A DNA stretch of 64,000 nt from Alphaproteobacteria bacterium (GCA_031367205.1 JANLPK010000052.1:4968-68967); one strand, 5' to 3'; numbered from the stretch's first letter, positions 19,801 through 40,077 are shown. Numbers and translations are program-made. The notes: generated from the sequence alone by a model not told the origin.

Positions 19801-20020
19801 GGTTCGCCCCAAGGCCATGACCGTGGCGGTGATCCTGGCGGGCCTACTGCCGATCCTGCTTGGCCACGGGACCGGTTCAGAAGTCATGAGCCGGATCGCC
19901 GCGCCGATGATCGGCGGGATGCTAACCGCGCCCCTCCTCTCCATGTTTGTCGTGCCCGCAGCATATCTGCTGCTGCGCCGACGCCGTCCGCCACGGTCAC
20001 GGCAAAAGGCGTTCAGCTAG
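16877..20020 (+). CDS. cusA: CusA-family Cu(I)/Ag(I) RND pump
   Basis: [26 protein letters not shown], and Met-site motifs [37 protein letters not shown]. Confidence 0.96.
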
Positions 20021-20066: not shown

Positions 20067-20320
20067 GGTGGTTGGTCCCAGAGGAAGAGTTTCGCCAGGA
20101 CAGGTTGGATTTTGCTTCACCGAGTATTTGGAGGAAATGCACTCCAAAATTCACGTCGTGTCGCGGGTCCATTCTCAGCTCTGATTGATTCGTAGTGGCT
20201 TCCTCAGCTGGTTTGGTTTTGATTGGCGTCGCATGCTGCTTTGCTAGGTAAACCTGCCGGAGCAACGCTTTGTCGGGGGACACCGACAACCGGGGTATTG
20301 CCGCAATTGAGGGGGTGAAG

Positions 20321-21496
20321 GTGACGAAGTTCGAGCAACGCAGGAAGGCGATCATCCGGGCTGCGGTCGGTGTCATCAATCGCAAGGGCGTGAGGGGGAT
20401 GACCTTCAGTGAGGTCGCTACACGACTGGATTTGGTAACCAGTGCGATAAGTTACTACTTCCGCCGAAAGGAAGATCTGGCCGCAGCTTGCTTGATGGAG
20501 TCGATCGCGTGTTTCGAGCGGTTTGCGGATGCTGCTGACGCCGGGACCAACCCGAGGGAGCGGGTGCGACTTTACCTTTTGTCACTCATGCGCTTCTGGA
20601 GCGAATTGGCGACAGGCCAAGCTGACCCAGTCGTCCTGTTCAACGAAGTCCGCACGATCGGCGATCCCATGGTCGATGTCGCCTATCTCCAGATGTACCG
20701 ACGTCTGCGTCGACAGCTCGACATATCGCCACGCCTTGGGCCACTGGAACGCAATGCACGCACCCACCAGTTCATTACCCAAGCCATATGGATGACCCTC
20801 TGGGCCGACCGCTATGACCCCCGAGATTTTGAACGAATTGCTGAGCGTACAGCAGACATTCTGATAGGCGGCCTCGCGGCCACAGATCACCACTGGAGCT
20901 CCGCCACGCTACCGGCAGACCTGTCGGCGACTCCGCCGGACGCATTCATGACCGCGGCGACAGAATTGATCAACGAGGAGGGCTACCGAGGCGCTTCAGT
21001 TGATCGCATCGCTGCACGTCTCAACCTGACTAAGGGTGCTTTCTACCACCGTCACGACGCCAAGGACGATTTGGTGGTGGCCGGCTTCAATCGCACGCTA
21101 GCGCTTATCAGGCACGCTCAGGACCGAGCTGAAGCGACTGGCACCAACAGCCTTGAGCGCCTGTGCCTTGCTGTGGATGACTTGTTCAGGGGGCATTTGG
21201 ACAGGTCGGCACCGCTTTTGCGTATTTCGGCGCTCGCCGCTGTGCCCGAGGACATCGGCCAAGACATCTTCCTTCAGTTCAGCCGCGTTTCCTTGCACTT
21301 CGCAGGTATCATCGCCGACGGCGTGCGTGACGGATCGATCCGGGCGGTCGACCCCAATATCGCAGGCTTCATGATCACGGCAATGATCAGCGGTGCAACC
21401 GAGCTTACCAATTGGGTGCCCGGAGTGACCGCACCCAACGCGGCGTCTGCCTTCTTCCGTCCACTGGTCGAGGGCATGTTTTCCGACTCGGCTTGA
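20321..21496 (+). CDS. Tandem double-TetR transcriptional regulator (alternative TTG start at 20270)
   Basis: Two HTH units: RRKAIIRAA...GVRGMTFSEVATRLDLVTSAISYYF and FMTAATELINEEGYRGASVDRIAARLNLTKGAFYH. Confidence 0.88.
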   Translation: MTKFEQRRKAIIRAAVGVINRKGVRGMTFSEVATRLDLVTSAISYYFRRKEDLAAACLMESIACFERFADAADAGTNPRERVRLYLLSLMRFWSELATGQADPVVLFNEVRTIGDPMVDVAYLQMYRRLRRQLDISPRLGPLERNARTHQFITQAIWMTLWADRYDPRDFERIAERTADILIGGLAATDHHWSSATLPADLSATPPDAFMTAATELINEEGYRGASVDRIAARLNLTKGAFYHRHDAKDDLVVAGFNRTLALIRHAQDRAEATGTNSLERLCLAVDDLFRGHLDRSAPLLRISALAAVPEDIGQDIFLQFSRVSLHFAGIIADGVRDGSIRAVDPNIAGFMITAMISGATELTNWVPGVTAPNAASAFFRPLVEGMFSDSA

Positions 21497-21664: not shown

Positions 21665-22450
21665 TTGAAGGATTTTGACGATCACATCCGCGAGCTTGAA
21701 TCGCATGGCTACTCCATCATGCCGGGTGCCGTGTCGTCGGCTCTGTGTGATGAGATCGTCAGTGAAATCCAACGGCTCGAGGCCGAGATGGAGCCCTCCC
21801 TGAAGGGCAACGCCTTCGTTGGCTACAAGACGGTTCGCTATTTCGATCTGTTGAATCAAAGCGAGGTCTGGCAACGGGTGGCTGCACATCCAAACCTACT
21901 GCCTGTGCTGCGCGGGGTCTTAGGCAGAGACATGCTGCTGTCGACGATGGGTACAGCCGTGATCGGGCCCGGCGAACGGGCTCAACCGATCCATCGCGAC
22001 GATGAACTCTACGACATAGCCATGCCGCATCGGAATTTGGTCTGTAACACCATGTGGGCGCTGACAGATTTCACCGAGGAGAATGGTGCCACGCGGATCG
22101 TGCCCGATACCCATCGACAGGTTGCCGCGCCCGATCCGCGCGAGACCCATGCCTCTATCCCCGCGACAATGCCGAAGGGGAGCGTCTGCTTCGTATTGGG
22201 CACGGCCTATCATGGCGGTGGTGCCAACCAGACTGCAGATCGCCGCTGGGCGTTGACCATCAATTATTGCGCTGGTGCCATGCGCCAGCAGGAGAATCTG
22301 ATGCTCGCCACAACCCGCGAACGCGCGGCCGGCTTCGCACCTGAACTGCAGGCCCTGATCGGCTATCGACAGACCTTGCGCAATGTCGGCCACGTCAACG
22401 CCGCCGACCCGCGTCGCCTACTGGAACCTTACACCGTGGGGACAGATTGA
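21665..22450 (+). CDS. PhyH-family Fe(II)/2-oxoglutarate dioxygenase
   Basis: HRD (HxD), ALTDFTEENGATRIVP, AYHGGGANQT..RR. Confidence 0.9.
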   Translation: MKDFDDHIRELESHGYSIMPGAVSSALCDEIVSEIQRLEAEMEPSLKGNAFVGYKTVRYFDLLNQSEVWQRVAAHPNLLPVLRGVLGRDMLLSTMGTAVIGPGERAQPIHRDDELYDIAMPHRNLVCNTMWALTDFTEENGATRIVPDTHRQVAAPDPRETHASIPATMPKGSVCFVLGTAYHGGGANQTADRRWALTINYCAGAMRQQENLMLATTRERAAGFAPELQALIGYRQTLRNVGHVNAADPRRLLEPYTVGTD

Positions 22451-23448
22451 TGGATGACCTTTCACACCCTCAGACAACCCCTCCGCGGCGCCCTCGCGAC
22501 TTCGAATCTGCGCCTTATTTGAGCCAGAAACGCAACATCTCGCGCCTATATCCGGAATTGAAGGCGCTAGGATTACAGTCGCATATCGCGGACTTAGCGG
22601 TGCTGGGCTACACGATTGTGCCGCCGGACAAGGTTGCCCCTCCCGAGCATATCGCAGCCCTTCGCCAAGCCGTGCTAAGGGTCTCTGAGCAACGTACCCG
22701 CATAAAGCCAGACGAACAGGGCGGCTCGACCCACCTTGCCTCTCAGCATCCGCTCGGCCAATTTATGCGCTACGTACTGTTCGAAGATCAGATCTTTGAA
22801 CCGATCCTGACCAATCCGGTTCTCCTGGGACTGATCACGCACCTCGTCGGATATGACGCCTTGCTCAGCCTCAACGACGCCATGGTCAAGGGGCCTGGCG
22901 GTGCGGCGCTTTCAATTCACAATGACAACGGTGACCTCACAACAGCGGTTTATCCAGATCAACCCCAGACGGCAAACATCAACCTGCTGCTCAACGACTA
23001 CGAAGCCGGCAGCGGAACCATCGCCTTCCTGCCCGGAAGCCATCGCTTTCGCCGACAACCGACCCCCGGCGAAATGCGTGAACTGAAGGATGAATTGGTT
23101 CCGGTAATCGCGCCCGCCGGTTCGGCGGTGATCTGGCCTGCTAACACGTGGCACATGGCGTTTCCACGCACTGACCCTGGGCTCCGGCTCACCCTGCTGT
23201 ACGACTTTTGCCGCGGGCATTTGCAAACCCAATCGCCATTCCGCGCAGATATCACGCCTGATATCCTCGCCCGCAACCCCGCTCGCTTCGCGCAGTTGAT
23301 GCACGTCTACGGGGCTTTTCCGTTCCGAGAGGAAGACATTGACCGGAAACGAACCGCGCTCGGCTCTAAGCATCACAGTCTGTTCGACTGCGATCCCATA
23401 TGGACCGATTTCCATGACCTGGAGCGCGTGCGACGAGCAGCTGAGTAG
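22450..23448 (+). CDS. PhyH-family Fe(II)/2-oxoglutarate dioxygenase with N-terminal extension
   Basis: TGATG overlap with the previous gene; HND, FLPGSH, TWH..PR. Confidence 0.85.
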   Translation: MDDLSHPQTTPPRRPRDFESAPYLSQKRNISRLYPELKALGLQSHIADLAVLGYTIVPPDKVAPPEHIAALRQAVLRVSEQRTRIKPDEQGGSTHLASQHPLGQFMRYVLFEDQIFEPILTNPVLLGLITHLVGYDALLSLNDAMVKGPGGAALSIHNDNGDLTTAVYPDQPQTANINLLLNDYEAGSGTIAFLPGSHRFRRQPTPGEMRELKDELVPVIAPAGSAVIWPANTWHMAFPRTDPGLRLTLLYDFCRGHLQTQSPFRADITPDILARNPARFAQLMHVYGAFPFREEDIDRKRTALGSKHHSLFDCDPIWTDFHDLERVRRAAE

Positions 23449-23674: not shown

Positions 23675-24490
23675 ATGACCGGACGTCTAGCGGGTAAGGT
23701 TGCCCTGATCACCGGCGGCACCAGCGGCATTGGTGAGGCGACAGTCGAGCTGTTTGTCGCGGAGGGTGCAAAGGTTGTGATTGTCGGCCGCAACACCGAC
23801 AAAGGTGACGCGATGGTCGGATCTTTGGGCACCAACGCGTGTTTCTTCAAGGCCGATGTCACCCAGGAAGCCGAGGTGAAGGCCGCCATCGACCATGCGG
23901 TTACAAGCTTCGGACGCCTCGACATTTTGTTCAACAACGCGGGCGGCGGCACGCTGGGTGGAGTGGATACATTTACCGGTGTGCAGTTCGATCACGCCAT
24001 GCACCTCCTGCTCGGCAGTGCCCTATTTGGCATCAAACACGCAGCGCCGATCATGAAGCTTCAGGGTTGGGGCGCGATCATCAATAACTCTTCGGTAGCT
24101 GCTCTGCGCACCCACATGGGCGGCTATCTCTATTCTGTGGCCAAGGCCGGCCTGACTCAGGCGACCAAGCTGGCGGGTATGGAACTCGGACGACATGGCA
24201 TCTCGGTCAACTGCATCTCGCCTGGCGGTATCGCAACGCCGATCTTCTTCGGTGGCTCGGCTCGCGCCGCCAGCATGGAGGATGCGCGTCTTGATGCCAC
24301 CATGGCCAAGCTCGAGCTCAACCTTGCCAAGGCGACACCGATTCAGAAATCCGGTCTCCCGAAAGATATCGCCGCTGCCGCCTTGTTCCTGGCCAGCGAC
24401 GATGGCCATTACGTCAATTGCCACGACTTGGTGGTAGACGCGGGCATGACGGCCGGCGGGCGAACCAATTTCGAAGACGCGGCGGGGTAG
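23675..24490 (+). CDS. Short-chain dehydrogenase/reductase
   Basis: TGGTSGIG, NNAG, YSVAK, VNCISPG; RBS GGAG before ATG 23675. Confidence 0.92.
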   Translation: MTGRLAGKVALITGGTSGIGEATVELFVAEGAKVVIVGRNTDKGDAMVGSLGTNACFFKADVTQEAEVKAAIDHAVTSFGRLDILFNNAGGGTLGGVDTFTGVQFDHAMHLLLGSALFGIKHAAPIMKLQGWGAIINNSSVAALRTHMGGYLYSVAKAGLTQATKLAGMELGRHGISVNCISPGGIATPIFFGGSARAASMEDARLDATMAKLELNLAKATPIQKSGLPKDIAAAALFLASDDGHYVNCHDLVVDAGMTAGGRTNFEDAAG

Positions 24491-24563
24491 CTCCAAGCTT
24501 AGCGAGCCAAGGTGGCCTCAGGGCCAGAGGGTTCCGTCTTAGGACGACGCATTCGGGCGACGC

Positions 24564-25445
24564 TCACCCCAGATTGGGTGTCGCCTGCTTGGGTCTCAAG
24601 TCAGCGCCCCACGTCACCACGGGTGGGTTGGCAGCGACGCTCAAAACTTCAGCTTGGCGACGCATCATGTCCGGCCAGAAGCTGCCGCTGAAAACGTAGA
24701 AGCGATCGCTCTTCAGAGCCTCCAATGTGTCTGACGCGATGGCGTCGGCCGAGATACCCCGGCCCTGAAAGACCTCCGAGCCCCGCACATGGGACGGATC
24801 ATTCCACTCCCGATCGCTCCAGGGCTGATCAGCAGCAGGACGGTTGCGGCCAGACTTATGGATCATGGTATCGACCATGCCGGGGCATACGACCGAGACG
24901 CCGATCTTGGTGTTCCAAGCCTTCAGTTCCGAATAGAGCGATTGGCTAATCGAGAGGGCGGCTGCTTTCGAAGAGCAATAGGGGGAATGCTCTCCGGTCC
25001 CGCTAAAGGCGGCAAGCGAGGCTGTGTTGATCACGTGACAAGGCTCGCCGTGAGCAATCATTCCCGGCACAAATGCCTTTATGCCATGAATAATGCCCCA
25101 GACATTCACGTCGTGAACCCATCGCCAATCGTCCAGACTCAATTCCCAGAGCGGACCGGTAATCGAGACGCCGGCATTATTGACAAGCACATGCGCATTG
25201 CCAAACTCAGCTTGTGTGGTTTGTGCCAACGCCTCAACTGAGGCGTAGTCAGTCACGTCAGTGCGCACACCGATTGTCTCAAACCCAGCCGCGCGCAAGG
25301 CTCCAACCGCGCCATCTAGGGCATCCTGTTGAATGTCGGCCAGCACCAGCCGCATGCCTTCTGCCCCAAAGGATCGCGCCATTGCCAAGCCGATGCCGCT
25401 AGCGCCGCCGGTAATGACGGCGACCTTACCCTTTAAGTCATCCAC
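24564..25445 (-). CDS. Short-chain dehydrogenase/reductase
   Basis: TGGASGIG, NNAGV, YCSSK, VCPGMVDT. Confidence 0.92.
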   Translation of the reverse strand: MDDLKGKVAVITGGASGIGLAMARSFGAEGMRLVLADIQQDALDGAVGALRAAGFETIGVRTDVTDYASVEALAQTTQAEFGNAHVLVNNAGVSITGPLWELSLDDWRWVHDVNVWGIIHGIKAFVPGMIAHGEPCHVINTASLAAFSGTGEHSPYCSSKAAALSISQSLYSELKAWNTKIGVSVVCPGMVDTMIHKSGRNRPAADQPWSDREWNDPSHVRGSEVFQGRGISADAIASDTLEALKSDRFYVFSGSFWPDMMRRQAEVLSVAANPPVVTWGADLRPKQATPNLG

Positions 25446-25462
25446 GGTCAGAATTCTCGCGT

Positions 25463-26335
25463 TCAGAGGTGATTTTCGAACCAGTCGAGCGCCGCCTGAC
25501 GCGCGGGCACCAGGTGCTTGTCATAGACTTGGTAATGGGTGCAGGGGAATGTGATGCGATCGCAGACGACGCCGTTGGCCTTAACGATCTCGTAGGCGGC
25601 ACCACCTTGCAAGGCCGCCTCGTTATACTCTTCAAACTCCGCGTCAATAAACAGCGATGGCGCACGGATTCCAGCAGCGCCTAACAGGGGCGAGTGGCCA
25701 AATTGGCGGGCCAAGTCGGGCGTTCCACGGAGCCCAGGAGAGTTATCGACACCCTGCGGAACAGGTGGATCGATCCGACCGCGAGCCTTATCGGCCATCC
25801 GCTGATAGGCAAGGTCGCGGTACCAATTCTCACGCGGATGTCCATAACCGCCGATCTGAGCAACCATGGCCTTAATTCGGGAGTCGGTACCGGCGACGAA
25901 GGTGACGTGACCTCCGCCATAACTTGAACCCCATAACCCGATGCGCTCGGGGTCAACGCCAGGTTCGCTCACCAAGTAGGCCAAACATGCCCGGATATCC
26001 GCGATTTGATCAACCGGATCAACGACCTCTCGTAGCACGTGTACCGGCAAGACAGCCTCACCCGCAGAGGTCAACGAGGGGGTGTTGGCCGTGGAAATCA
26101 GCCGACCATCGCTTTCACCCCAACCGCGATAGTCAAACACCAGGCAAGCATAGCCGGCTGCGACGAACGTTTCAGCGTACAGCTGAGTCAGATGCTCCTT
26201 CAGCCCACCCCATCCATGACAGAGCAAAATGCCAGGCCGCGATCCATCAGCACCTCGCGGGTGCATCATCACAGCGGCGAGGCGCGATCCCTCCGACCAT
26301 ATGCTGACGGCCTCTCGTTCGCCCTCGTACGTCAT
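25463..26335 (-). CDS. Alpha/beta hydrolase (S9/S15-like)
   Basis: CHGWGG, FDYRGWGESDG, nucleophile GSSYGG, His in CTHYQVY. Confidence 0.85.
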   Translation of the reverse strand: MTYEGEREAVSIWSEGSRLAAVMMHPRGADGSRPGILLCHGWGGLKEHLTQLYAETFVAAGYACLVFDYRGWGESDGRLISTANTPSLTSAGEAVLPVHVLREVVDPVDQIADIRACLAYLVSEPGVDPERIGLWGSSYGGGHVTFVAGTDSRIKAMVAQIGGYGHPRENWYRDLAYQRMADKARGRIDPPVPQGVDNSPGLRGTPDLARQFGHSPLLGAAGIRAPSLFIDAEFEEYNEAALQGGAAYEIVKANGVVCDRITFPCTHYQVYDKHLVPARQAALDWFENHL

Positions 26336-26604
26336 GTGCAGCTTACCTTCCCGTGACCATCTACCGCCGAGCAGATCGCAACCCGCACAAACCACATGCT
26401 CAAATTAATTGCCTGATGTCACGAAAATATCCGTTTGTCAGGACAATTTTGTCTCGACTTCAATACCACACCAACAATTATGTAATTCGGTAAAGGCGTG
26501 GTGACGAAAACGCGATCGGTGAAGCGGTTGGCCGCCACTTGAAGGGTTCCGGTCGAGGGCGCGCGCTGTGACCGCGTTTGAGTGGGTTTAGTTTGAGGCA
26601 AAAA

Positions 26605-27456
26605 CTACAACACCAATGGTCGACCCTGCGCATCAAGCGGGCCGACGGGGGTGATAGCCCGGCTCAGTACGCCGGTCTGAGTGGGCTTCTCTAGCCGCCC
26701 CAGCCCGTGCTGGATTGTGTAACCCAACCGCCGCAATAGGGCGGCGTTTTCAGGGGTCTCGTGCTGCGAATCCAAGCCCAGGAAAAAATTCTCCTGTTGG
26801 CGTATGAAGGGGCGGCAGAAATAGGTCAGGATCGCATGCCGCAACGTCGAGCTCGTCTGGTTTGCGCCCGTCCCATGTATCAGCCGCCCATCAAAAACCA
26901 GGGCCGAACCTGCGGGACCAGCAGCGGCCAAAGTCGGCGTTGTCTGGTCTACGGTCCACTCTTCTCGCGTGTGACTTCGCGGACTCAATCGGGTGCCGCC
27001 GTTCTCTTCTGTGAACTCGTCAAGCATCCAGGCAATGTTGGCGACCAGCGGCTTGGCGGTCGCAAACGGCACATAGCCCTGGTCGGTATGCAGATACATT
27101 GGCTCGCTACCCGGCGCGGCGATGTTCGCGGTTGCAGAGGACAGTAAAAAATCCTTCCCCAATAGATGACTCATCATTTCATCGACCAGTGGATGCAGCA
27201 CGAGATCTCGAAACGCTTGGCCCTTGTTGACCAGCATCCAGACCCGTTGATTAGTCCCACTGTCGCGCCAGTCGAGCCCGGCAGCGACCTCCCCCGCCGC
27301 TTGCGCCACGACCCGCGCCCGCAGTAACTCAATTTGATCCGGTGACAGTGCGTCGCGCACGATACAGTAGCCAAATGTGTCGAGGTCACTTAGGGCAACA
27401 CTTCGGTCGACCGTTGGTTTGGGCACGGAACGATTAGCTTTGGAATTCAAGTCCAT
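26605..27456 (-). CDS. PhyH-family Fe(II)/2-oxoglutarate dioxygenase
   Basis: LHTDQ, MLDEFTEENGGTRL.P.SH, LIHGTGANQT, RQQEN. Confidence 0.9.
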   Translation of the reverse strand: MDLNSKANRSVPKPTVDRSVALSDLDTFGYCIVRDALSPDQIELLRARVVAQAAGEVAAGLDWRDSGTNQRVWMLVNKGQAFRDLVLHPLVDEMMSHLLGKDFLLSSATANIAAPGSEPMYLHTDQGYVPFATAKPLVANIAWMLDEFTEENGGTRLSPRSHTREEWTVDQTTPTLAAAGPAGSALVFDGRLIHGTGANQTSSTLRHAILTYFCRPFIRQQENFFLGLDSQHETPENAALLRRLGYTIQHGLGRLEKPTQTGVLSRAITPVGPLDAQGRPLVL

Positions 27457-27470
27457 GGATCGACCCTCGC

Positions 27471-27980
27471 TCAGAGACGGGTTGACACGCTGCGATTAGA
27501 GATGAGCGAGCTTAGGCTTGGTCCGGAAACAATCTCAATCCAGTAGCCGTCGGGATCGCGAATGAAGGCTAGCCCCTTCATGGCACCTTCATCCGGGCGC
27601 TTAACGAAGTGAACACCCATCTCCTCAAAGCGTCGGCAAGCCTCTTCGACATTCGGCACAGAAATTCCGATATGGCCGAAACCGCGCGGCTCGGTGTTAC
27701 CGTTATGATAGGCGAACCCCGGATCAACCTCAGTGCCCCAGTTGTGGGTCAACTCCAGGAGCGCCGGCTGCTCGAATATCCATCGAGCGCGAGCGGCACT
27801 GTCCCTGGGCGGCTCGCCACCTGAATAGCCCAAAAAATAGAGGCTGAAACCAAGCTCAGTGAAGTCATATCGGTCAAGCAGGCGCATGCCCAGAACATCC
27901 ACGTAGAACGCCAGCGAGGGCTCCGGATCCCGAATGCGGAGCATTGTTTGGTTGAAGACGTAACCCTCAGTGGCACTCAT
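27471..27980 (-). CDS. gloA: Lactoylglutathione lyase (glyoxalase I), long Zn-type class
   Basis: [49 protein letters not shown]. Confidence 0.92.
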
Positions 27981-28423
27981 GCTTCAACGGATTTCGCCTG
28001 GGCCGTCCGCCGCATCCGCTCGACCTCTTCCCATCCCAGATAGGCCGTGAAGCGATCTCCATCAAAGTAGAGCAGAGGCCCCATGCAGATAAACAGGTAC
28101 TCGGTATCCTCAAGCGCCTCAGTCGCACCGTGCAGCACACCGTTGGGTTCATAAACGTAGTCGCCGGTTTCCAGAATCCCATCGCGGACTTTCAGCCGCC
28201 CCTTCAAGATGAAAGTATGGGAGGCGGAGAGGTGCTTATGGGGTGGGGCCGTAAATCCCTTTGCCCATCGGTAGAGGACCGCCCAGGCGCCGCTCTCAGA
28301 GCCCGTATAGAGCACTTTCGTGGCCGACATTTCCGAGTGGACAATCCAAGGCGTTTGGCTGGCCGCCACAAGGGTATCCTGTAGATCGCCGTTCAAGGGA
28401 CGAATGTCTTGAGGCAATGGCAT
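27977..28423 (-). CDS. Cupin dioxygenase, Dke1 (beta-diketone-cleaving)/DAD-like
   Basis: H62-x-H64 ... E92 ... H98 ([16 protein letters not shown]) and C-terminal MGPLLYFD...LGWEE; ATGA-coupled to gloA. Confidence 0.75.
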
Positions 28424-28641
28424 GGAACGAATCTCCGATCACTTATTGTTAGCCCGATGTCGAGCAGTGGGCATGGTGCCGAGTCCTAGGGAGGCCCATA
28501 CTTCAAGGCCTAACTTTTTCAACTACAACATCTCATTCGCCGAAACATGTCATTCCAACTTGACAAATGTGACTCCCACATGTGACGCCATACATACCGC
28601 AATGTCAAAAAAGAACGGCAGATACGCCGCCCGGGAGAGAG

Positions 28642-30117
28642 ATGCTGGATATCTCGTCGACTTCTGAGTCTAAGTCCGGAACACCGACCGCCTTCGTCCC
28701 CACATCGACGCCCCCGAGCCTCGCGACAAAGCTGTTCTACGGTGCGGGATCGATGGCGTTCGGCATCAAGGACCAGGGTTTCGGCGTCCTGCTTATGCTA
28801 TTCTATAATCAGGTGTTGGGGCTTCCGGCGCGCCAAGTCGGCTTAGCAGTTATGATCGCGCTGATGGTCGATGCGCTGCTTGATCCCACGATCGGTTATC
28901 TCTCTGACAACCTTCGCTCGCGCTGGGGACGACGTCATCCTTTCATGTATGCCGCAGCGCTGCCCATCGCCGGCACTTATCTGTTACTTTGGAACCCGCC
29001 TGCCGGCCTGAGCCATGGTCAGCTGTTTGCTTATCTGACCGGCGTCTCCATCTTGGTGCGGGCGTGCATAACCTGTTTTGAGATCCCCTCTTCAGCGCAG
29101 GTCGCAGAGTTGACCGCCAGCTATGACCAGCGCACCGACATGCTTTCGTACCGGTACTTCTTCGGTTGGGTGACAAGCCTCACGATGTCGATCCTAGCCT
29201 TCAGTGTTATCCTCAAGCCGGACGCTACTCATAAGGTCGGACAGCTCAATCCGGAAGGTTATAGCCACTACAGCTGGATTGCTGCAGGCCTGATGCTGGC
29301 GGCAATCTTGGTCTCGGCTATCGGCACTCACCGCAATATCAAGACCTATGCAACTGCTCCGGCACGACCGAGAATGACCGCTCGCCAGATCGCCCATGAG
29401 ATCATCACGACCCTTTCTGAGCGTGCGTTTCTGGTCATGGCCGCGGCAGGCGTGTTTGGTGCAACTGCGGCGGGCCTTGGCGGCGCGCTGATCATCTATT
29501 TCCGAACCTATTTCTTCGATCTGACCGGCAACCAGATCTCAATTCTGCTCTCGGCGAACTTTATCTCCGTCGCAGTGGCTGTCTTCGTGGCACCAAGGCT
29601 ATCTAAACGGTTCGGGAAAAAGCGCGTTTCGATTGCCGCTTCGGTGGCTTCAATCCTGATCGGACCGATACCGGTGGTCTTAAGGCTTCTACACTTGGGG
29701 CCCGAAAACGGATCGACGGCAATCTTGCCACTGCTCTTCTGTTTCACAACCGTGACGGCCGGTTTGGGCATTGTCTCCAACATCTTGATGTCATCCATGA
29801 TTGCGGATGTCGTGGAGCACAGCCAACTCAAGACTGGACGACGCAATGAAGGTCTTTTCTTCTCGGCCAACGCTTTCATACTCAAATGTGTCTCCGGCAT
29901 CGGCCTCTTCTTTGGTGGCCTATTGCTTGACATCGTCGGCTTCCCCCAGGGCGCTCACCCGGGTCCTGAGACCCATGCGGCGCTCAGCAAGCTGGCGACG
30001 CTGGAGATTCCTTTGACGGTGGCACTCTATCTCGTGGGGGTCGCCTGCGTCGTCGCCTATCCGATCAGCCGCAGCTTACACCAAGCCAACCTAAGTCGGC
30101 TCGAGGCAGCGCAATGA
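28642..30117 (+). CDS. GPH (MelB-like) MFS transporter
   Basis: DALLDPTIGYLSDNLRSRWGRRHPF, KRFGKK, SMIADVVE...TGRRNEGLFFS; about 12 hydrophobic segments. Confidence 0.9.
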   Translation: MLDISSTSESKSGTPTAFVPTSTPPSLATKLFYGAGSMAFGIKDQGFGVLLMLFYNQVLGLPARQVGLAVMIALMVDALLDPTIGYLSDNLRSRWGRRHPFMYAAALPIAGTYLLLWNPPAGLSHGQLFAYLTGVSILVRACITCFEIPSSAQVAELTASYDQRTDMLSYRYFFGWVTSLTMSILAFSVILKPDATHKVGQLNPEGYSHYSWIAAGLMLAAILVSAIGTHRNIKTYATAPARPRMTARQIAHEIITTLSERAFLVMAAAGVFGATAAGLGGALIIYFRTYFFDLTGNQISILLSANFISVAVAVFVAPRLSKRFGKKRVSIAASVASILIGPIPVVLRLLHLGPENGSTAILPLLFCFTTVTAGLGIVSNILMSSMIADVVEHSQLKTGRRNEGLFFSANAFILKCVSGIGLFFGGLLLDIVGFPQGAHPGPETHAALSKLATLEIPLTVALYLVGVACVVAYPISRSLHQANLSRLEAAQ

Positions 30118-30932
30118 GCCGCGACTTGTCACTGAGCGGGAAGGTGGCGATCGTCACCGGGGCGGCCGGCGATATCGGTGCAGCAAGCGTGCGATTGTTA
30201 GCCCGCCGCGGCGCAAATGTGCTGGCTGTAGACCGCGATGCCGCGGGCTTGGCAAGGCTTACAGCAGAGCTTGAAACCGATGTGGAAGTTGCAACATTCT
30301 GCGCAGACGTCACTGACGAGGCAGCAGTCGAAGCGTATGTGCAGGCTGCGATAGGGCGTTTTGGCGGGCTCGACATATTTTTCAACAACGCCGGGATCGA
30401 AGGCGACGCCGAAAATGCCTGGCGGTTGACCACCGAATTTCCCTTGACCTCATTTAACCAAACCATGGCGGTAAACGTCGGCGGGGTGTTCCTTGGCATG
30501 AAGCATGCCATACCGGCCTTACAAGCGCGTGGCGGTGGCAGCATTATCAACAGTTGTAGTCTGTACGGCATCAAGGGTAGCGCCGGACAGATCGCCTATG
30601 TGGCTTCAAAACATGCGGTATTGGGGATGACCAAAACGGTTGCAGCCGAGGTCGGAAAGGACGCCATTCGCGTCAACTGCATCGGACCGGCGCTGGTCGA
30701 AGGGCGCATGATGGACGAACTGATGCGTCAGATTTCGGCCCGCAATCCCAACGCGCCCGCGCCCAGCGAGCCGGCAATATCTGTGGTTCCAAGGCCTGCA
30801 CCGTTTGCGCCTTTGCGACGTTGGGCCTCGCCAGATGAGATCGCTCCGTTGGTGGCGTTCCTAGCCTCGGACGACTCAGCGTTTATAACCGGTGCCTACT
30901 ACGCCATCGACGGAGGGCTGGGCGCCATCTAG
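30114..30932 (+). CDS. Short-chain dehydrogenase/reductase
   Basis: TGAAGDIG, FNNAGIEG, YVASKHA, FLASDD; ATGA-coupled to the MFS gene. Confidence 0.92.
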   Translation: MSRDLSLSGKVAIVTGAAGDIGAASVRLLARRGANVLAVDRDAAGLARLTAELETDVEVATFCADVTDEAAVEAYVQAAIGRFGGLDIFFNNAGIEGDAENAWRLTTEFPLTSFNQTMAVNVGGVFLGMKHAIPALQARGGGSIINSCSLYGIKGSAGQIAYVASKHAVLGMTKTVAAEVGKDAIRVNCIGPALVEGRMMDELMRQISARNPNAPAPSEPAISVVPRPAPFAPLRRWASPDEIAPLVAFLASDDSAFITGAYYAIDGGLGAI

Positions 30933-30989: not shown

Positions 30990-33900
30990 CTACCAAGCAT
31001 CGATCCATTTCAGCTTCTTTTCTGTCCGCGCAGGCGGTGTGGGTAACGCTCTTAGAGCCCCCACGATCCACCGCCGCGTATCGGCTGGATCAATCACGTC
31101 GTCGATGCTTGGCCCTCTGCCGCGACTGAGCGCCTTGCCCGACTCATAGGCTTGGGCGACCATTTCGTCGAACTTGGCTTTGCGCTCGACCGGATCTTCA
31201 ATTGCGGCCAATTCGTTGCGGTAGCCCAGCTTCACCGAGCCTTCCAGGCCCATACCGCCAAACTCCGCCGTCGGCCAAGCCACAGCAAACATTGACGCCT
31301 GGTAGCTACCACCGGTCATGGCGATGGCGCCCAAGCCGTAGCTTTTGCGCAGGATCACGCTGAGGATCGGCACCGTCAGGTTCGCGCCGATCAGAAACAG
31401 CCGCGAGCAATGCCTCACCAAGGCGGTCCGTTCGATTTCCGGGCCCACCATCATCCCAGGCGTATCCGACAGCGACAGCACCGGAATGTCGAACGCCTCG
31501 CAGACCTGCAGGAACCGGGCGGCCTTGTCGGCTCCGTCGCTGTCGATGGCTCCACCCAGATGCCGGGGATTGTTGGCAATAATCCCCATTGGTCGGCCCT
31601 CGATGCGGATCAGGGCAGTGACCATGGTTGGCCCGAACTGTCGCCGCAGCTCAAGCACAGATCCGTCGTCGGCCAGAGTCTCGATCAGGGCGTGGATATC
31701 ATAGACCCGCAACCGATTCTCTGGGATCGCATTGCGCAAATGCCTTTGGTCTGCGCACGCCCATTCGCTCAGTTTCCCCTGGAAATAGGAGAGGTACTGC
31801 TTGGCCACCGCCACCGCCTGGGCTTCGTCCTCCACCACGATGTCAATGACCCCGTTGGGCGCCTGGATGTTGACCGGTCCGATCTCTTCAGGGCGGAACA
31901 CGCCAAGCCCGCCCCCCTCGATCATGGCGGGCCCTCCCATGCCGATGGACGAATCCTTGGTGGCGATGATCACATCGCAACAGCCCAGCACCGAGGCGTT
32001 CCCCGCAAAGCATCGTCCCGAAGTGATCCCCACCAGGGGCACAAGACCTGATAGGTGTGGCCAGAACTCGAAGCCGCGCGTGAAGCCGCCGCCCTCGGTG
32101 TCTCCCGGTCGGCCGCCGCCGCCTTCGCAGAAGAAGACCACCGGCAGCCGCGCTCGCTCTGCGACCTCGATCAACCGGTCCATCTTGTTGTGGTTGTAAG
32201 CGCCCTGGGTGCCGGCCAGCACGGTGTAGTCATAGGCCATCACAGCGCACCGGGCGGTCTCATCGGCGAACTGATCACCGTTGATCCGGCCAATGCCCAT
32301 GACCAGCCCGTCGGCTGGCGTCTGTTCGATCAGTTCCTTAAGGGTGTTCCGTCGGCGTCGCGCTGCCAGGACGAGGGCTCCATATTCGACAAAGGAGCCG
32401 TCATCCATCAGGTCATCGACATTCTCCCGCGTGGTCCGCTGCCCCGTCTTTCGCCGCCGCGCGACCGCTTGTGGACGGGCGGCATCCTTGGTCATCCGAT
32501 GGCGAGCCAAGACCTCAGCTAGGTCCGGGCGCACGGCGTCCAGGTCGACCGTCTCAACCTCGCCGGCACCGGCCTCACCGAGGTCGGATGCCTCGATGAA
32601 GACCAAAGGATGGTCCTCAAATACTGTATCGCCCACCGCCACGGTAAACTCACGCACGAAGCCGCTGACGTGAGCGGCGACGACGTGCTCCATTTTCATC
32701 GCCTCCATGATCAGCACCGCTTGTCCCTCGCGCACCGCTGCTCCGGCGGCCACGGCCAGGGCCACCACAGTGCCCTGCAGCGGCGCGCGCAGAGAGGTGG
32801 TTCCATCCGGGCCGATGATCTCATCAGAGTTCGAAAGCACCGAATGTTCGGTGCGATCCGGGGCCGGGTCGCCGCTCTTTCCGTGAGTCAGGATCGCCAG
32901 CGGATCGACCGCGTCGACCTTGGCTCCCGCTCGACGCTGGGCCTGGGCTGTGTCGAAGTGCAAGCGCGGATGCTCGCTCGCGGCAGCCTCCACCAAGGTC
33001 GCAATATCCTCCTCCACCATCCGGGTATGCAGGGCCCCCGCGATGAAGGCAGGACTCTTCAGGATCGCCTGCAGGAACGCGATGTTGGTCGAGGCCCCGG
33101 TGATCTTGAACTCACATAAGGCCCGATAGGCTTTGGCTGTTGTTGCCGCCAAGTCCGGCGCGTGGACAATAAGTTTTGCCAGTAAGGAATCATATCGGGC
33201 GCTGGTCCGGTACCCGCCATAGCCGAAGCCGTCCACGCGCACCCCGTGCCCTGACGGCGGCTCATAGGCCGATAGAACCCCACCGGATGGCCGCACGTCG
33301 CCCTCAGATGTCATGGTCTCGAGATTGACCCGGGTTTGAATGGCCACGCCGCGCGGGACAGGGATAGCAGCCTGTGTCAGCCCTAGTTGCGCCAGGGTCT
33401 TGCCCTGCGCAATCTCCAGCTGGATGCGAACCAGGTCCAGCCCGGTAACCTCCTCGGTCACCGTATGCTCCACCTGTAACCTTGGATTGGCCTCGATGAA
33501 ACTGAACTGCGGGCCGGCTCCTCTGACATTGACCAGGAACTCGATAGTCCCCAGCGACAGGTAGTTCGCTGCCTCGCCCAGCTTTACCGCCGCCGCCAGC
33601 AATTGGGCCCGCACCCCTTCGTCGATCCCACTCGCAGGCGCGATTTCAATGAGTTTCTGCCGCTGCCGCTGCACGCTGCATTCGCGGTCCCAGAGGTGAC
33701 TGACCGTGCCGCGCCCGTCTCCGAGGATCTGCACCTCGACGTGTCGCGCTCGCGCGAAGAACTGCTCGACATAGAGCCCACCTTCTCCGAACGAGGCCAG
33801 GGCCTCTGACGCGCAGCGCTCATAGGCACTCGCCAGATCTGCCATCGCCGTTACCGGTCGCATGCCGCGACCGCCACCTCCGGCTAGCGCCTTCAGCATC

Positions 33901-34361
33901 ACGGCCCCGCCCGCGCCCAATCCCTCAAGGAAGGCACCTGCCTCGGCTAGGCTGGTCACCTTCCGCGTGCCCGGCAAGATTGGCACGCCGCATCGCTCGG
34001 CCAAACCCAGCGCTTGGGTCTTGTCGCCGAATAGGGCCAGGGTTTCAGGTGTAGGCCCCACAAAGGTCAGACCCGCCGCCGCGCAATCGCGCGCGAACTC
34101 GGCGTTTTCCGAGAGGAATCCATAGCCCGGATGCACCGCGTCGCAGCCGGCCTCCAGGGCCGCCGCGATCACTTGCGCCCGATCCAGATAGGCTGCTGCA
34201 CCTGACCCAGTCAGTCCCACTGCCCGATCGGACTTGCGCGTGTGCAGCGACAGCGCATCATCCTCGGCATAAATCGCCACCGTCTCCAGCCCAAACTCAG
34301 CCGCCGTGCGGGCAATCCGGATGGCGATCTCGCCCCGGTTGGCGATCAACAGACTTTTCAT
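30990..34361 (-). CDS. Single-chain multidomain acyl-CoA carboxylase (BC-BCCP-CT; LCC-like)
   Basis: BC: ANRGEIA, HPGYGFLSEN, GGGGRGMR, EANPRLQVEH; BCCP: EAMKMEH; CT: GGGGRPGD, GGPAMIEGGG, DTPGMMVGP. Confidence 0.93.
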   Translation of the reverse strand: MKSLLIANRGEIAIRIARTAAEFGLETVAIYAEDDALSLHTRKSDRAVGLTGSGAAAYLDRAQVIAAALEAGCDAVHPGYGFLSENAEFARDCAAAGLTFVGPTPETLALFGDKTQALGLAERCGVPILPGTRKVTSLAEAGAFLEGLGAGGAVMLKALAGGGGRGMRPVTAMADLASAYERCASEALASFGEGGLYVEQFFARARHVEVQILGDGRGTVSHLWDRECSVQRQRQKLIEIAPASGIDEGVRAQLLAAAVKLGEAANYLSLGTIEFLVNVRGAGPQFSFIEANPRLQVEHTVTEEVTGLDLVRIQLEIAQGKTLAQLGLTQAAIPVPRGVAIQTRVNLETMTSEGDVRPSGGVLSAYEPPSGHGVRVDGFGYGGYRTSARYDSLLAKLIVHAPDLAATTAKAYRALCEFKITGASTNIAFLQAILKSPAFIAGALHTRMVEEDIATLVEAAASEHPRLHFDTAQAQRRAGAKVDAVDPLAILTHGKSGDPAPDRTEHSVLSNSDEIIGPDGTTSLRAPLQGTVVALAVAAGAAVREGQAVLIMEAMKMEHVVAAHVSGFVREFTVAVGDTVFEDHPLVFIEASDLGEAGAGEVETVDLDAVRPDLAEVLARHRMTKDAARPQAVARRRKTGQRTTRENVDDLMDDGSFVEYGALVLAARRRRNTLKELIEQTPADGLVMGIGRINGDQFADETARCAVMAYDYTVLAGTQGAYNHNKMDRLIEVAERARLPVVFFCEGGGGRPGDTEGGGFTRGFEFWPHLSGLVPLVGITSGRCFAGNASVLGCCDVIIATKDSSIGMGGPAMIEGGGLGVFRPEEIGPVNIQAPNGVIDIVVEDEAQAVAVAKQYLSYFQGKLSEWACADQRHLRNAIPENRLRVYDIHALIETLADDGSVLELRRQFGPTMVTALIRIEGRPMGIIANNPRHLGGAIDSDGADKAARFLQVCEAFDIPVLSLSDTPGMMVGPEIERTALVRHCSRLFLIGANLTVPILSVILRKSYGLGAIAMTGGSYQASMFAVAWPTAEFGGMGLEGSVKLGYRNELAAIEDPVERKAKFDEMVAQAYESGKALSRGRGPSIDDVIDPADTRRWIVGALRALPTPPARTEKKLKWIDAW

Positions 34362-36499
34362 AAGACTCTCACTTCCGCCATCACCTCATCGGTGTGTTCA
34401 CCCAGCACGGGGGCCGCTCGCCGTACAGCAGGTCGCAGGCCATCAAATCGAATTGGTGTCGCGGGCGTCAAGTGTTCGCCTACGTATTGGCGCTCCTGAC
34501 AAACCCAGAAATCCGACGTGGCCAACTGCGGATCAGACGCCAAGGTGTGCGCTGGCTGTACCGGGGCCGCTGCAATCCCGGCCGCCTGCAGCTCTGCCGC
34601 CGCCTGCGACGGCGTGCGGATTGCTGCCCATTCCGCCAGCGCAGCTTGAAGGCCGCTGACCCCCGACTCTGACGTTCCGCGCTTGAGCACATCCCACAAA
34701 CCGACAATATCGACTTCATCCGCCGACACCGCCAACCATCCATCGCCCTTGCTGCGAACCACGCACGACAAGGTTTTTGTGGCGCGCGCGCTTCCGGTTC
34801 GACGCGAGGCCGCGCCTGTCACTTGTTCGCCGATGATCGCGTCCGCCCCAAGCTCAAACAGGCATTCCACCTGGCAGAGCTCGATTTCGGCCCCGCCTAG
34901 AGAATCCCTCGCAAACAACGCCGTCATCGCTGCAGCCACCGCATAGAGCCCTGCCACAGGATCGCCGTAGGCCACGTGCTGAAGGCAGGGTACCCAATCC
35001 TCAAAACCGTTGACAAACGGCATGCCCGACGCCTGCTCCACTGTCGATCCATAGGCTCTAAGCCCTGCCAGCGGCCCTCGCTTGCCAAACGGCGGCATCG
35101 AAATTGACGTTACAGCGGGGTTCAGTTTTCGCTGTGCCTCCGGTCCCAGGCCCAGCCGGTCCATCACTCCTGGGCCCAGGTTCTCGATGACGATGTCGGA
35201 TGTCGCGATAATCGAACGCGCAGCGCTAAGTCCCTGTTCTGTCGTTAGATCCAGGTCCAGTCCCCGCTTGTTCCGGTTGACCGCAAGGAAGTTGCGCTGG
35301 ATCTCCGTCGAGGGTGGTCCATCGCTTGCAATGTCCTCCCAACCTCGCCACCAATCCGGTCGTGTTGTGGACTCGATTTTTCGCACATCAGCACCTAAAT
35401 CCCCGAGGTACCGTGCGGCCAGCGGCCCGGCCCAACCCATGCTGAAGTCGGCCACCTTGATCCCCGTCAAAGGCCCGGGTGCGCCGCCGCTGGGTCGATC
35501 TGATTTCACGCCGCTCCAAGTCTGTCGGAACGGAAGGTCAGGGCCCATCACGTCGCCAATTGGCGCAAAGGACTTCCGCACCTTCCAATGCTCGACGAAC
35601 GGTAACTCGCCAGGCCTCGGCACCGGCGTAGTCGGAATGCGCAACCGATCGCCATCGCTCACCCAGTCCATCGTCGCGCGCTGCGCAAATATCGGCATCA
35701 GCAGTTCGTCGACGAGATCACCGTTCATGAGCCGCTGGAAGGTCGTCGAGAAACTCGGGTGACTTGCAAGCTCGGGTCGGTCAATCAGGCCGCACAGCGA
35801 AGTCCACTGTGCCGGCGTAAGCGCCGTTATCCCCACATACCCATCCGCTGTCGGATAGATGGAACAGGGATATGTGGGCACGAACCGGTTCACCCCCAAC
35901 CGCAGCGACGCGGTTCCGGTGTAGGCTGCGGCCACCGCCGCCGTTTCCGTAAAGCACATGGCGGCCTCAAAAACATTGACGTCGATGCGTGCCGGTCGCG
36001 GGCTCGAGACCAAGGCCGCCATCGCCCCGACGAACCCCGTCAAGCCCGCCACGATCTGCGGCGAGTGCCCGTGGGCCAGTAGCGGTGGTCCCTCCGGTAG
36101 GCCGAAGCCGTAGGCGCAGCCGTTGAGGGCATGCAGCACGGCGTCATTGCCGCGCCAGCCGCAATAGGGGCCCGCCTTGTCGAACCAAGTTAGGCCTAAC
36201 ACCGGTGGCGATCCGGACAGACCCGCTGCGACCTGATGGGCCGCCTTCACAGCTCCCTGGGACTGGCCCGCAATTACGAGGTCAAAAGGTCCGCCGTCGC
36301 CCACGTGCGATGTGCTCTTGCCGTGGTCCAGCCAGCGGCCGAACACAACGCCCGCTTCGCCGCCCTGCCCCAGAAGTGTATCGTCCGATGCGCCGACCCT
36401 GAAAACCGACGCGCCCTGACGGGCAAACAGGCGACCACAGTACCGCACTGCCACATCGTCCCCAAGTTCAAGAACCCGCAACTTCGACAGCGGTGACAT
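34358..36499 (-). CDS. Fused two-domain CaiB/BaiF (family III) CoA-transferase
   Basis: Two CaiB-like units (LRVLELG...; LTGIKVADFSMGWAGP...NRNKR...ENLGPG); RPAVRRAAPVLGEHT C-terminus; ATGA-coupled to the carboxylase. Confidence 0.9.
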   Translation of the reverse strand: MSPLSKLRVLELGDDVAVRYCGRLFARQGASVFRVGASDDTLLGQGGEAGVVFGRWLDHGKSTSHVGDGGPFDLVIAGQSQGAVKAAHQVAAGLSGSPPVLGLTWFDKAGPYCGWRGNDAVLHALNGCAYGFGLPEGPPLLAHGHSPQIVAGLTGFVGAMAALVSSPRPARIDVNVFEAAMCFTETAAVAAAYTGTASLRLGVNRFVPTYPCSIYPTADGYVGITALTPAQWTSLCGLIDRPELASHPSFSTTFQRLMNGDLVDELLMPIFAQRATMDWVSDGDRLRIPTTPVPRPGELPFVEHWKVRKSFAPIGDVMGPDLPFRQTWSGVKSDRPSGGAPGPLTGIKVADFSMGWAGPLAARYLGDLGADVRKIESTTRPDWWRGWEDIASDGPPSTEIQRNFLAVNRNKRGLDLDLTTEQGLSAARSIIATSDIVIENLGPGVMDRLGLGPEAQRKLNPAVTSISMPPFGKRGPLAGLRAYGSTVEQASGMPFVNGFEDWVPCLQHVAYGDPVAGLYAVAAAMTALFARDSLGGAEIELCQVECLFELGADAIIGEQVTGAASRRTGSARATKTLSCVVRSKGDGWLAVSADEVDIVGLWDVLKRGTSESGVSGLQAALAEWAAIRTPSQAAAELQAAGIAAAPVQPAHTLASDPQLATSDFWVCQERQYVGEHLTPATPIRFDGLRPAVRRAAPVLGEHTDEVMAEVRVL

Positions 36500-36992
36500 C
36501 TGGTGTTTCCCTCCCGTGGCCCTCTTATCGGAGCTCATCGCGACATCGCCAAGGGTGCTGCCTCGCGAAAAAATGCTACCGCACCCTCTTCAGGCATGCA
36601 CTCCCAAAATACCAGTCTATCAAATCAAGCACTCATCGGCTTATCAACCGGCGACCAAACTGCGGCCTTTGGGGCCGAGGCCGTCGCCCCCTGTCGGGTG
36701 CCGATCAAGGCCGAGCACTGGCAATTGCTCGCGGGCTTCTAGGTCGACTTGGTCGGCATCCGAGTTGGGATTGACCATCGGTGAATGGCGACGTCCAGGC
36801 GCAAATGGCGTCGGGTGGGATTTGTCGCCATCCATAGGCAGAGTGAGCTGCTCGCGCAGAGCAAGGATCAGGCGTGCTGGTTCGGAAAACTTGGCGTCTA
36901 CCTCACAGCAGATGATCGTAACCCTCGGCCAACGGTCGCCTCAAAGAAAGGCGGGTTTCGGCGCGACCTTAAAGTTACTCCGCAGACTTGGT

Positions 36993-39430: not shown

Positions 39431-40077
39431 AAGCGGTCTCCCATGATGTGCCCAAACCCGGTTAGCGGGTCCTGGCACCCAGCGTCACTCGGCCACTGGC
39501 CGGCACCTCAATGGCGCGCTGTTGACCCGACATTGCGAACCACTGTCAAAATTGTCAAGACGATTTTATTATGTGGGTTACATACCCGAGTCACTTATTT
39601 TTCGAAATCTCCCCATTTTACAAGGAGTTCGGTATATTGTAGGTCATACTATTGAACGAATTTTAGTAATCGGAATGCTTTGTTGATCGCTTCGCGATCG
39701 ACCGCGGGGAGCAGGAAGCCATGACTGCGGAAGCCCTCGAACCTCGAAATGACTAGATCGGGAGCCTCTCGCTACAGATGGACATCGCTTCGTGTCCTTT
39801 GTCCTGATCGCCCCAGCCAAAGTCTCTGCAAGGGGTCTGGGATGGAGCGAGAGGTCGGCCTTCGGTATGGCTTCGCCTGCGCGGGCCCGCGATATCGCTA
39901 TGGCTTCGGCAGCGCTCCCCTTTCGAAACCCGCGTGGCCCGACAGAGTCGCCCAGTTAAGCCAGTCTGGGGCAACGAAATAGATACCGGATGGTCAAATT
40001 AGCATTTGACGCTTGAACGAGAGAGCCGCACGATCATGTGCCTTCGGTGGAATTGGCCCCACGGCTGGAGAAACGCC

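Follow-up and report, generated by a model that had tools for sequence, protein, structure and literature searches.

A Dke1-like cupin gene overlapping a glyoxalase I gene in alphaproteobacterial DNA: a candidate pair for β-dicarbonyl cleavage and 2-oxoaldehyde removal

Results

The cupin and gloA genes share an ATGA junction

In a stretch of 64,000 nucleotides of DNA from an Alphaproteobacteria bacterium (GCA_031367205.1, JANLPK010000052.1:4968-68967), a gene for a small cupin protein runs into gloA, a gene for glyoxalase I. The whole stretch, hereafter called the window, stems from a freshwater-sediment metagenome, and all positions given below for it are counted from its first letter. An earlier note on this DNA had proposed that the two genes form a cleave-and-detoxify module, in which a cupin resembling the β-diketone-cleaving enzyme Dke1 of Acinetobacter johnsonii would generate a 2-oxoaldehyde and the glyoxalase would remove it. 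Our analysis points to Dke1 as the nearest solved relative of the cupin and finds the pairing with gloA in other genomes as well, while placing the cupin in a sister subfamily of Dke1 whose substrate pocket looks different. The pair and the gene that follows it are arranged as listed here.

27977-28423, minus strand: cupin gene, 148 aa, a Cupin_7 monocupin of the Dke1-sister subfamily
27471-27980, minus strand: gloA, 169 aa, a Zn-type glyoxalase I (lactoylglutathione lyase)
27977-27980, minus strand: ATGA junction of the cupin stop and the gloA start, read directly from the sequence
26605-27456, minus strand: gene of a PhyH-family Fe/2-oxoglutarate dioxygenase (Pfam PF05721, 98 bits)

Plus-strand positions 27977-27980 read tcat, which gives ATGA on the minus strand, and the ATG of gloA and the TGA of the cupin gene overlap by 4 nt as the earlier note had described. 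Its statement that the PhyH gene follows 14 nt past gloA likewise agrees with the coordinates of the open reading frames (ORFs; gap 27457-27470), and this gap contains a GAGGG ribosome-binding-like site. The cupin ATG at 28423 has a GGAG 9 nt upstream. A clear Shine-Dalgarno sequence was not seen upstream of the gloA ATG, which fits a coupling of the two genes through termination and reinitiation. The 4-nt ATGA overlap is a frequent operon junction in general; the signal above chance lies in the recurrence of the cupin-gloA pair.

Dke1 is the nearest solved relative of the cupin

When the residues of the cupin are counted, those listed in the earlier note are all present, namely H62-K-H64, E92, H98 and a C-terminal block running from G115-P-L-L-Y-F-D121 to L129-G-W-E-E133. 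The protein matches Pfam family PF12973 (Cupin_7) with 92 bits. Dke1 (3BAL) was the top match among the PDB sequences (HMMER, E 3.9e-10), followed by the Dke1-like entry 2O1Q, whereas 2,4'-dihydroxyacetophenone dioxygenase (DAD) was marginal in this single-sequence search (E 0.012). A profile of 28 subfamily members gave the same ranking against the PDB (5.4e-9 for Dke1 versus 3e-4 for DAD), and ChrR was absent from the PDB matches of both the single-sequence and the profile search. The PDB molecule name of 2O1Q, 'putative acetyl/propionyl-CoA carboxylase, alpha subunit', looks misnamed, as the title of the entry is putative acetylacetone dioxygenase.

With an AlphaFold2 model of the cupin (pLDDT 87.8) as the query, Foldseek also ranked 3BAL first (E 1.7e-10, TM 0.72), with DAD 5BPX and 2O1Q practically tied with it (E 3e-10 and TM 0.73 for DAD, 5BPX and 4P9G), and ChrR (2Q1Z) only at rank 27 with a TM of 0.53. 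The family models of ChrR scored far below their cutoffs on the cupin, at 16.1 bits for TIGR02451 (cutoff 124.5) and 14 for NF051881 (cutoff 300); as no NCBIfam model matches even true Dke1, these models are usable here solely to exclude ChrR. Dke1 is, as judged from the sequence comparisons, the nearest solved relative of the cupin, clearly ahead of DAD and with ChrR far off, while by the modelled fold alone Dke1 and DAD appear inseparable. The PDB sequence search, the Foldseek ranking and the ChrR model scores all side with the earlier note in calling the cupin Dke1-like rather than ChrR-like, and its finer distinction, Dke1 rather than DAD, stands by sequence and ends in a tie by fold.

An assignment to the dimethylsulfoniopropionate (DMSP) lyase-like cupins was also considered and rejected. 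DddQ reached Foldseek rank 12 with a TM of 0.49, Dke1 and DAD match far better, and the catalytic tyrosine of the DMSP lyases, which we take to lie two residues past the acid of motif 1, is not in the cupin (H69-T70-F71).

A Dke1-like core and a different substrate pocket

Dke1 has the ligands H62, H64 and H104 and the hydrophilic outer-shell residues Tyr70, Arg80, Glu98 and Thr107; mutagenesis has shown that the histidines of the triad, R80, E98 and T107 matter, while the Y70F exchange lowers the rate only 3-fold and Glu69 lies outside the active site (PMC4019311). Cupin residues H62, H64 and H98 align with the triad His62, His64 and His104, and Arg80, Glu98 and Thr107 are kept as R80, E92 and T101, all of which belong to the invariant residues of the subfamily (H62, H64, H69, R80, E92, H98, T101 and C113). 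The HMMER alignment to 3BAL shows the shared pattern E..G.LHG.T...GPL..D....GW.E, and both this pattern and the ligands of Dke1, as the earlier note had given them, are confirmed by the alignment and by the literature (PMC4019311), respectively. Tyr70 of Dke1 corresponds to an invariant Thr70 in the cupin subfamily. The residues F59, F115 and F119, which presumably line the substrate pocket of Dke1, are invariant in 12 Dke1-family sequences, and the cupin subfamily has an equally invariant A59, Y109 and C113 instead. The core that would carry the chemistry looks Dke1-like in this comparison, and the substrate pocket does not.

Members of the Dke1 family are 59-69% identical among themselves, and a comparison of the profiles of the cupin subfamily and the Dke1 family with hhalign gave a probability of 98% at an identity of 26%. 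In clustering at 50% identity the subfamily forms essentially one cluster of its own, and no more than 11 representatives fall below E 1e-30. The cupin has more than 1000 close homologues, of which the best 120 are at least ~65% identical to the window protein, and in the 79 genomic loci described below, which span Alpha- and Gammaproteobacteria, the cupins are at least 61% identical to it. Most of the subfamily members have no specific name, and one source labels many of them 'anti-sigma factor ChrR'. We assign the cupin, by these comparisons, to a compact, uncharacterised sister subfamily and conclude that it is not an orthologue of Dke1; given this position, the identity of 27% to Dke1 and the different pocket, acetylacetone need not be its substrate.

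GloA is a Zn-type glyoxalase I

GloA scored 186.3 bits against the lactoylglutathione lyase equivalog model TIGR00068 (cutoff 120) and matched mammalian GLO1 in the PDB end to end (E 1e-61), compared with 1e-17 for the short Ni-type GlxI of E. coli. Its metal ligands, by alignment to the Gln/Glu/His/Glu set of mammalian GLO1, are Q11/E76/H103/E149. The protein is predicted with confidence to be a genuine Zn-type glyoxalase I, and the score and the alignment bear out the long Zn type with Q/E/H/E ligands that the earlier note had seen. Its further argument, that this type suggests a dedicated copy of gloA, does not hold, as the same type is usual in these lineages.

The pair recurs in other genomes and alternates with a glutathione S-transferase

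Relatives of the cupin were sought in one genome per species; from the 349 obtained, 79 loci were kept, and flanks of ~10 kb per locus were searched by tblastn with the window proteins, with 600 nt as the limit of adjacency. The pairing is not unique to the window genome: at 27 of these 79 other loci the same long GloA (62-89% identical) stands no more than 600 nt from the cupin, and the rest of the flanks adds just 3 more copies of GloA. On the cupin tree, where a limit of 700 nt gave 28 GloA-adjacent loci instead of 27, the order is cupin>gloA at 11 loci (the window being the twelfth), gloA>cupin at 11 and convergent at 6. These three gene orders fall in different cupin clades of Alpha- and Gammaproteobacteria, which argues that the juxtaposition was made or kept several times. 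The match coordinates point to a 4-nt overlap in the near-identical metagenome-assembled genome L001, and the other cupin>gloA loci have intergenic gaps of 10-46 nt. PhyH adjoins the cupin-gloA pair only in L001 among the 79 loci and does not belong to the conserved unit.

A glutathione S-transferase (GST) instead of GloA stands beside the cupin in 19 of the 79 loci, all of them in Gammaproteobacteria, and lies immediately downstream of it in all but L050.

Loci with GST: L026, L031, L045, L047, L050-L052, L054, L058-L063, L069, L073, L076, L077, L079

The neighbour is either a canonical GST of 212 aa or a GST-like protein of ~371 aa, and never occurs together with GloA; the GST gene of L045 occupies 6475-7113. 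A frequent gene order at these loci is thiolase - DUF1329 - SDR - cupin - GST - (DUF2058) - glutaredoxin/rhodanese fusion, where SDR denotes a short-chain dehydrogenase/reductase. In a PDB search, the GST neighbours matched generic GST relatives only, and the ~371-aa protein had no relative. With GloA and GST taken together, a glutathione-dependent enzyme adjoins the cupin in 46 of the 79 loci, which suggests that the shared need may be for glutathione chemistry on the product and not for glyoxalase I itself. At 20 of the 79 loci the cupin has an SDR no more than 400 nt away, which would fit an oxidoreductase that makes the dicarbonyl.

Glyoxalase genes stand near true Dke1-family genes

Seven distinct contexts of the Dke1 family itself were examined, and a glyoxalase gene is nearby in four of them. 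In Acinetobacter modestus, whose protein is 99% identical to the characterised Dke1, dke1 is followed by a small ORF, an SDR, an AraC regulator and then a glyoxalase cluster that encodes a Glyoxalase-family protein (131 aa), a Lactamase_B+HAGH_C protein (glyoxalase II) and a membrane D-lactate dehydrogenase; this gloA-gloB-D-lactate dehydrogenase set is predicted to be a complete route from methylglyoxal to pyruvate. In Zavarzinia, Variovorax and Rhodospirillaceae KN72, a glyoxalase of 173-182 aa adjoins the Dke1-family cupin or lies two genes away, and these long GloA proteins are 54-66% identical to that of the window. An aldehyde dehydrogenase or an aldo-keto reductase takes the place of the glyoxalase in two further contexts, and one has none of the three. 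The hydrolase-SDR pair beside the Acinetobacter dke1 is 34% identical to the pair of the window described below. A conserved small ORF of 107-149 aa, with no Pfam match, lies directly after true Dke1-family genes, which also have an AraC-type regulator in the vicinity, at four loci (L080, 6465-6788; L082, 6439-6876; L086, 6527-6889; L087, 6488-6937).

Dke1 yields acetate and methylglyoxal, which glyoxalase then takes to lactate (PMC7226712). By analogy with these loci, the cleave-and-detoxify logic appears to be a real and recurrent feature of the Dke1 enzyme type, and the pair in the window would fit it.

The surrounding island and its counterpart on a Sphingopyxis plasmid

The island around the pair holds three PhyH paralogues, several SDRs, two MFS_2 transporters and two double-TetR regulators, together with an acyl-CoA ligase, a single-chain acyl-CoA carboxylase, a CoA-transferase and a TonB-dependent receptor, and its gene content marks the region as a putative catabolic island for some lipid-like compound. 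The elements nearest to the pair, and the PhyH paralogues, are the following.

25463-26395, minus strand: α/β hydrolase gene (matches to Pfam Peptidase_S15, DLH and Abhydrolase)
24564-25445, minus strand: SDR oxidoreductase gene (Pfam adh_short, 164 bits)
28424-28581: divergent intergenic spacer of 158 nt that separates the cupin operon from the MFS_2-SDR operon, from the ORF layout
28582-30932, plus strand: MFS_2 (GPH-family) transporter and SDR genes with a mutual overlap of 4 nt (PF13347, 318 bits; adh_short_C2, 178 bits)
21665-22450, 22447-23448 and 26605-27456: PhyH paralogues, three within 6 kb, two of them with a mutual overlap of 4 nt

The hydrolase gene lies 209 nt past the PhyH gene and is followed after a gap of 17 nt by the SDR gene in the same orientation; the hydrolase gene (25463-26395) is probably in the same transcription unit as cupin, gloA and PhyH. 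Homologues of the hydrolase occur close to the cupin in L025, L043, L055 and on the Sphingopyxis plasmid described below (51-63% identity), and the SDR (24564-25445), which is a candidate for producing the dicarbonyl substrate, has homologues in L021, L043 and the Sphingopyxis island (53-64% identity). The spacer at 28424-28581 is presumed to be the promoter region of the cupin operon. Scans of 24300-28800 for promoters, terminators and inverted repeats returned nothing that exceeded the shuffled background (consensus promoters in the case of the promoter scan), so that the operon limits are based solely on gene spacing. The sequencing runs matching the window sequence were sediment metagenome DNA only, and no RNA run with a match was found.

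Other features of the region were noted in passing. The tandem-TetR regulators (20270-21496 and 43417-44625) are ~400 aa long, with two TetR_N stretches each. A 1123-aa protein that joins biotin carboxylase, biotin carboxyl carrier protein (BCCP) and carboxyltransferase in a single, acyl-CoA carboxylase-like chain is encoded at 30990-34361 (minus strand), and its gene overlaps by 4 nt with that of a 726-aa protein that contains two stretches of CoA-transferase family III (34358-36538, minus strand); in L001 and L055 the neighbourhood of the cupin includes homologues of the carboxylase. The MFS_2 gene at 28582-30117, of which the window has a paralogue at 40006-41565, is missing from L001, which is otherwise collinear and near-identical. 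A copper/silver efflux-type cluster at 14080-20020, apparently unrelated to cupin-gloA, comprises a CusB-like membrane-fusion protein with CusF and heavy-metal-binding domains (14949-16880) and an AcrB/CusA-type RND pump (16736-20020).

Among 72,556 plasmids searched, a single match was found, in Sphingopyxis sp. 113P3 (NZ_CP009453.1, record 75446-105862, locus L090), a degrader of polyvinyl alcohol (PVA) and the only cultured carrier found. The gene order there is SDR <> cupin - gloA - FAD-linked oxidase, with WP_083455635.1 as the cupin, and the oxidase is, by its family name alone, a plausible candidate for a 2-hydroxyacid dehydrogenase. The plasmid island is syntenic with the window, with identities of 49% and 45% for MFS_2, 58% for the acyl-CoA ligase, 53% for the SDR, 51% for the hydrolase and 41% for the double TetR. 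The plasmid location makes this copy of gloA accessory in strain 113P3. The degradation pathway of PVA makes β-diketones, and a link of the cupin to it was considered and set aside: the pva operon of strain 113P3 lies on the chromosome (PMC4611681) and the cupin gene on the plasmid, with no physical linkage, so that a connection of the cupin to β-diketone-forming PVA oxidation is at best suggestive.

Discussion

A proposed two-gene unit for Dke1-type cleavage and 2-oxoaldehyde removal

The reading that we put forward, and which we regard as evenly poised on the sequence evidence at hand, is that cupin and gloA form a two-gene catabolic unit in which Dke1-type cleavage is followed by detoxification of the 2-oxoaldehyde. 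The cupin would be a mononuclear non-heme metal dioxygenase, most likely with Fe(II), whose H62/H64/H98 centre would bind the cis-enolate of a linear β-dicarbonyl (R1-CO-CH2-CO-R2). O2 would then attack the central carbon, and C-C cleavage would give a carboxylate and a 2-oxoaldehyde (R-CO-CHO). The latter would combine spontaneously with glutathione to a hemithioacetal, which the Zn-type GloA, made from the same transcript by way of the ATGA overlap, would convert to S-(2-hydroxyacyl)glutathione, and a housekeeping glyoxalase II encoded elsewhere would release the 2-hydroxy acid. Since GloA handles only hemithioacetals of R-CO-CHO, the mechanism of Dke1 (PMC4019311) would imply a substrate with an unsubstituted central carbon. 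Acetylacetone is probably not this substrate; smaller residues in the pocket point to a compound that is bulkier or more polar, and a larger or more polar β-dicarbonyl, supplied by the neighbouring SDRs within the lipid-like island, seems more likely. The interpretation of the earlier note is supported in part: the homology to Dke1, the catalytic residues, the Zn type of GloA and the recurrent linkage with GloA stand. Orthology with Dke1 and a conserved partnership with PhyH do not.

Several observations weigh against a β-dicarbonyl-cleaving pair of this kind. The cupin is only 27% identical, over 107 residues, to the orthologue that shares 99% with Dke1, it is without 6 loop residues that Dke1 has ahead of the glutamate at E92, and its pocket residues are A59/T70/Y109/C113 where Dke1 has F59/Y70/F115/F119. 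H69 is invariant in the subfamily at the position of the cupin-signature E69 of Dke1, and together with the altered pocket this means that metal coordination and substrate could both differ from Dke1. DAD, an α-hydroxyketone dioxygenase, equals Dke1 by fold alone. In the neighbourhoods, ~33 of the 79 loci have neither GloA nor GST beside the cupin, a glyoxalase II (motif HxHxDH) was found neither in the window nor near any of the 79 loci, and the replacement of GloA by GST at 19 loci is not explained by a simple methylglyoxal story, as GSTs are to our knowledge not known to act on 2-oxoaldehydes. The level Foldseek ranking of DAD, the pocket unlike that of Dke1 and the alternation of GloA with GST, which suggests a general need for glutathione and not one for glyoxalase I specifically, would agree with an oxygenase of the Dke1/DAD clade that has another chemistry, acting for example on an α-hydroxyketone or another enolisable substrate and giving a glutathione-reactive product that GloA or GST would remove. 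We consider this unlikely, because DAD is far weaker by sequence (E 0.012 versus 4e-10; profile 3e-4 versus 5e-9), because none of the outer-shell residues specific to Dke1 (R80, E98 and T107) has been lost, and because the commonest neighbour is GloA, with its narrow role on the hemithioacetals of 2-oxoaldehydes.

A glutathione-linked defence against dicarbonyls or electrophiles, in which the cupin would not cleave at all and would serve a housekeeping role, for instance by acting on a glutathione adduct or by assisting GloA or GST in a metal-dependent way, would account for the 46 of 79 loci with an adjoining glutathione-using enzyme, for the unusual conservation of the subfamily (at least 60% identity across classes) and for the invariant Cys113 at a pocket position. 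It would also suit the non-catabolic neighbours in marine Gammaproteobacteria, which include a glutaredoxin-rhodanese fusion, DUF2058, bacterioferritin and MobA; the same neighbourhoods hold lipid-type genes as well (thiolase, DUF1329 and SDR). Yet the full catalytic set of Dke1 is conserved, the alphaproteobacterial genes of the window and of the Sphingopyxis plasmid lie in accessory catabolic islands, true Dke1 enzymes show the same linkage with GloA, and we know of no cupin with a glutathione-linked defence role, so that we hold this explanation to be quite improbable. Last, the Pfam family bears the name 'ChrR cupin-like domain' and some sources label relatives of the cupin anti-sigma factor ChrR, which might speak for a sensory or anti-sigma cupin domain that stands beside gloA by accident. 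The protein is, however, a single domain of 148 aa with no N-terminal zinc anti-sigma domain, TIGR02451 reaches 16 bits versus the required 124.5, 2Q1Z appears at rank 27 with a TM of 0.53 and ChrR is absent from the sequence matches; no sigma factor was among the genes examined around the cupin, and a position next to GloA is found far more often than chance would give. This explanation, already disfavoured, is in our view extremely improbable.

Significance

Most of what is known of Dke1, a textbook example of the 3-His non-heme iron enzymes, comes from a single sewage isolate that was grown on acetylacetone. This compound has been called not a naturally occurring metabolite (PMC7226712). 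The repeated linkage of Dke1-type cupins of two subfamilies to glyoxalase I provides independent genomic support for a 2-oxoaldehyde product in nature. From the present comparisons a compact sister family emerges that has a pocket unlike that of Dke1, lipid-like catabolic islands and GST neighbours, and in which the 4-His-like motif (H62, H64, H69 and H98) could form a metal site other than that of Dke1. Here we speculate, well aware that the idea is doubtful, that this is a widespread and tightly conserved sister family of Dke1 in environmental Alpha- and Gammaproteobacteria with an obligate glutathione-enzyme partner, GloA or GST depending on the clade, and that it would represent the first natural glutathione-coupled route for the oxidative cleavage of linear β-dicarbonyls that occur in nature, such as long-chain β-diketones or oxidised 1,3-diol lipids. 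The Dke1 enzyme type would then gain a physiological role beyond growth on synthetic acetylacetone. Confirmation would extend the Dke1 enzyme type by a new substrate class and by a link to glutathione, and would improve the annotation of more than 1000 proteins now labelled 'cupin domain-containing' or, wrongly, 'anti-sigma factor ChrR'. The cultured carrier Sphingopyxis sp. 113P3 makes direct tests possible.

Comparison with known systems

The C-terminal cupin of the anti-sigma factor ChrR (2Q1Z) belongs to the same Pfam family as the cupin of the window, which differs in being without the anti-sigma domain, reaches a TM of only 0.53 and fails the ChrR models. DAD (4P9G, 5BPX) shares the fold, an equal Foldseek score and the same Pfam clan and family region, whereas its sequence match is only marginal (E 0.012); it cleaves an aromatic α-hydroxyketone to an acid and formate, and we know of no linkage of DAD to a glyoxalase. 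The window GloA resembles the Zn-dependent GLO1 of human and mouse in its metal ligands and in the additional segments typical of the long class, a class that also holds GlxI of Pseudomonas putida and GloA3 of P. aeruginosa; within it the sequence is unremarkable, and the only special feature is the position overlapping the cupin gene.

The closest counterpart is Dke1 of Acinetobacter johnsonii (EC 1.13.11.50, 3BAL), which is, like the cupin, a Cupin_7 monocupin of ~150 aa. The two have in common the 3-His triad, the equivalents of Arg80, Glu98 and Thr107 and the C-terminal GPL..D...GW.E block. The window cupin departs from Dke1 in its identity of 27%, the 6-residue deletion, H69, the different pocket and the setting in a lipid-like catabolic island, other clades of its subfamily have GST as the partner, and the small ORF and nearby AraC-type regulator of true dke1 genes are not beside it. 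What unites Dke1 and the cupin subfamily at the level of the genome is that both are linked to glyoxalase I.

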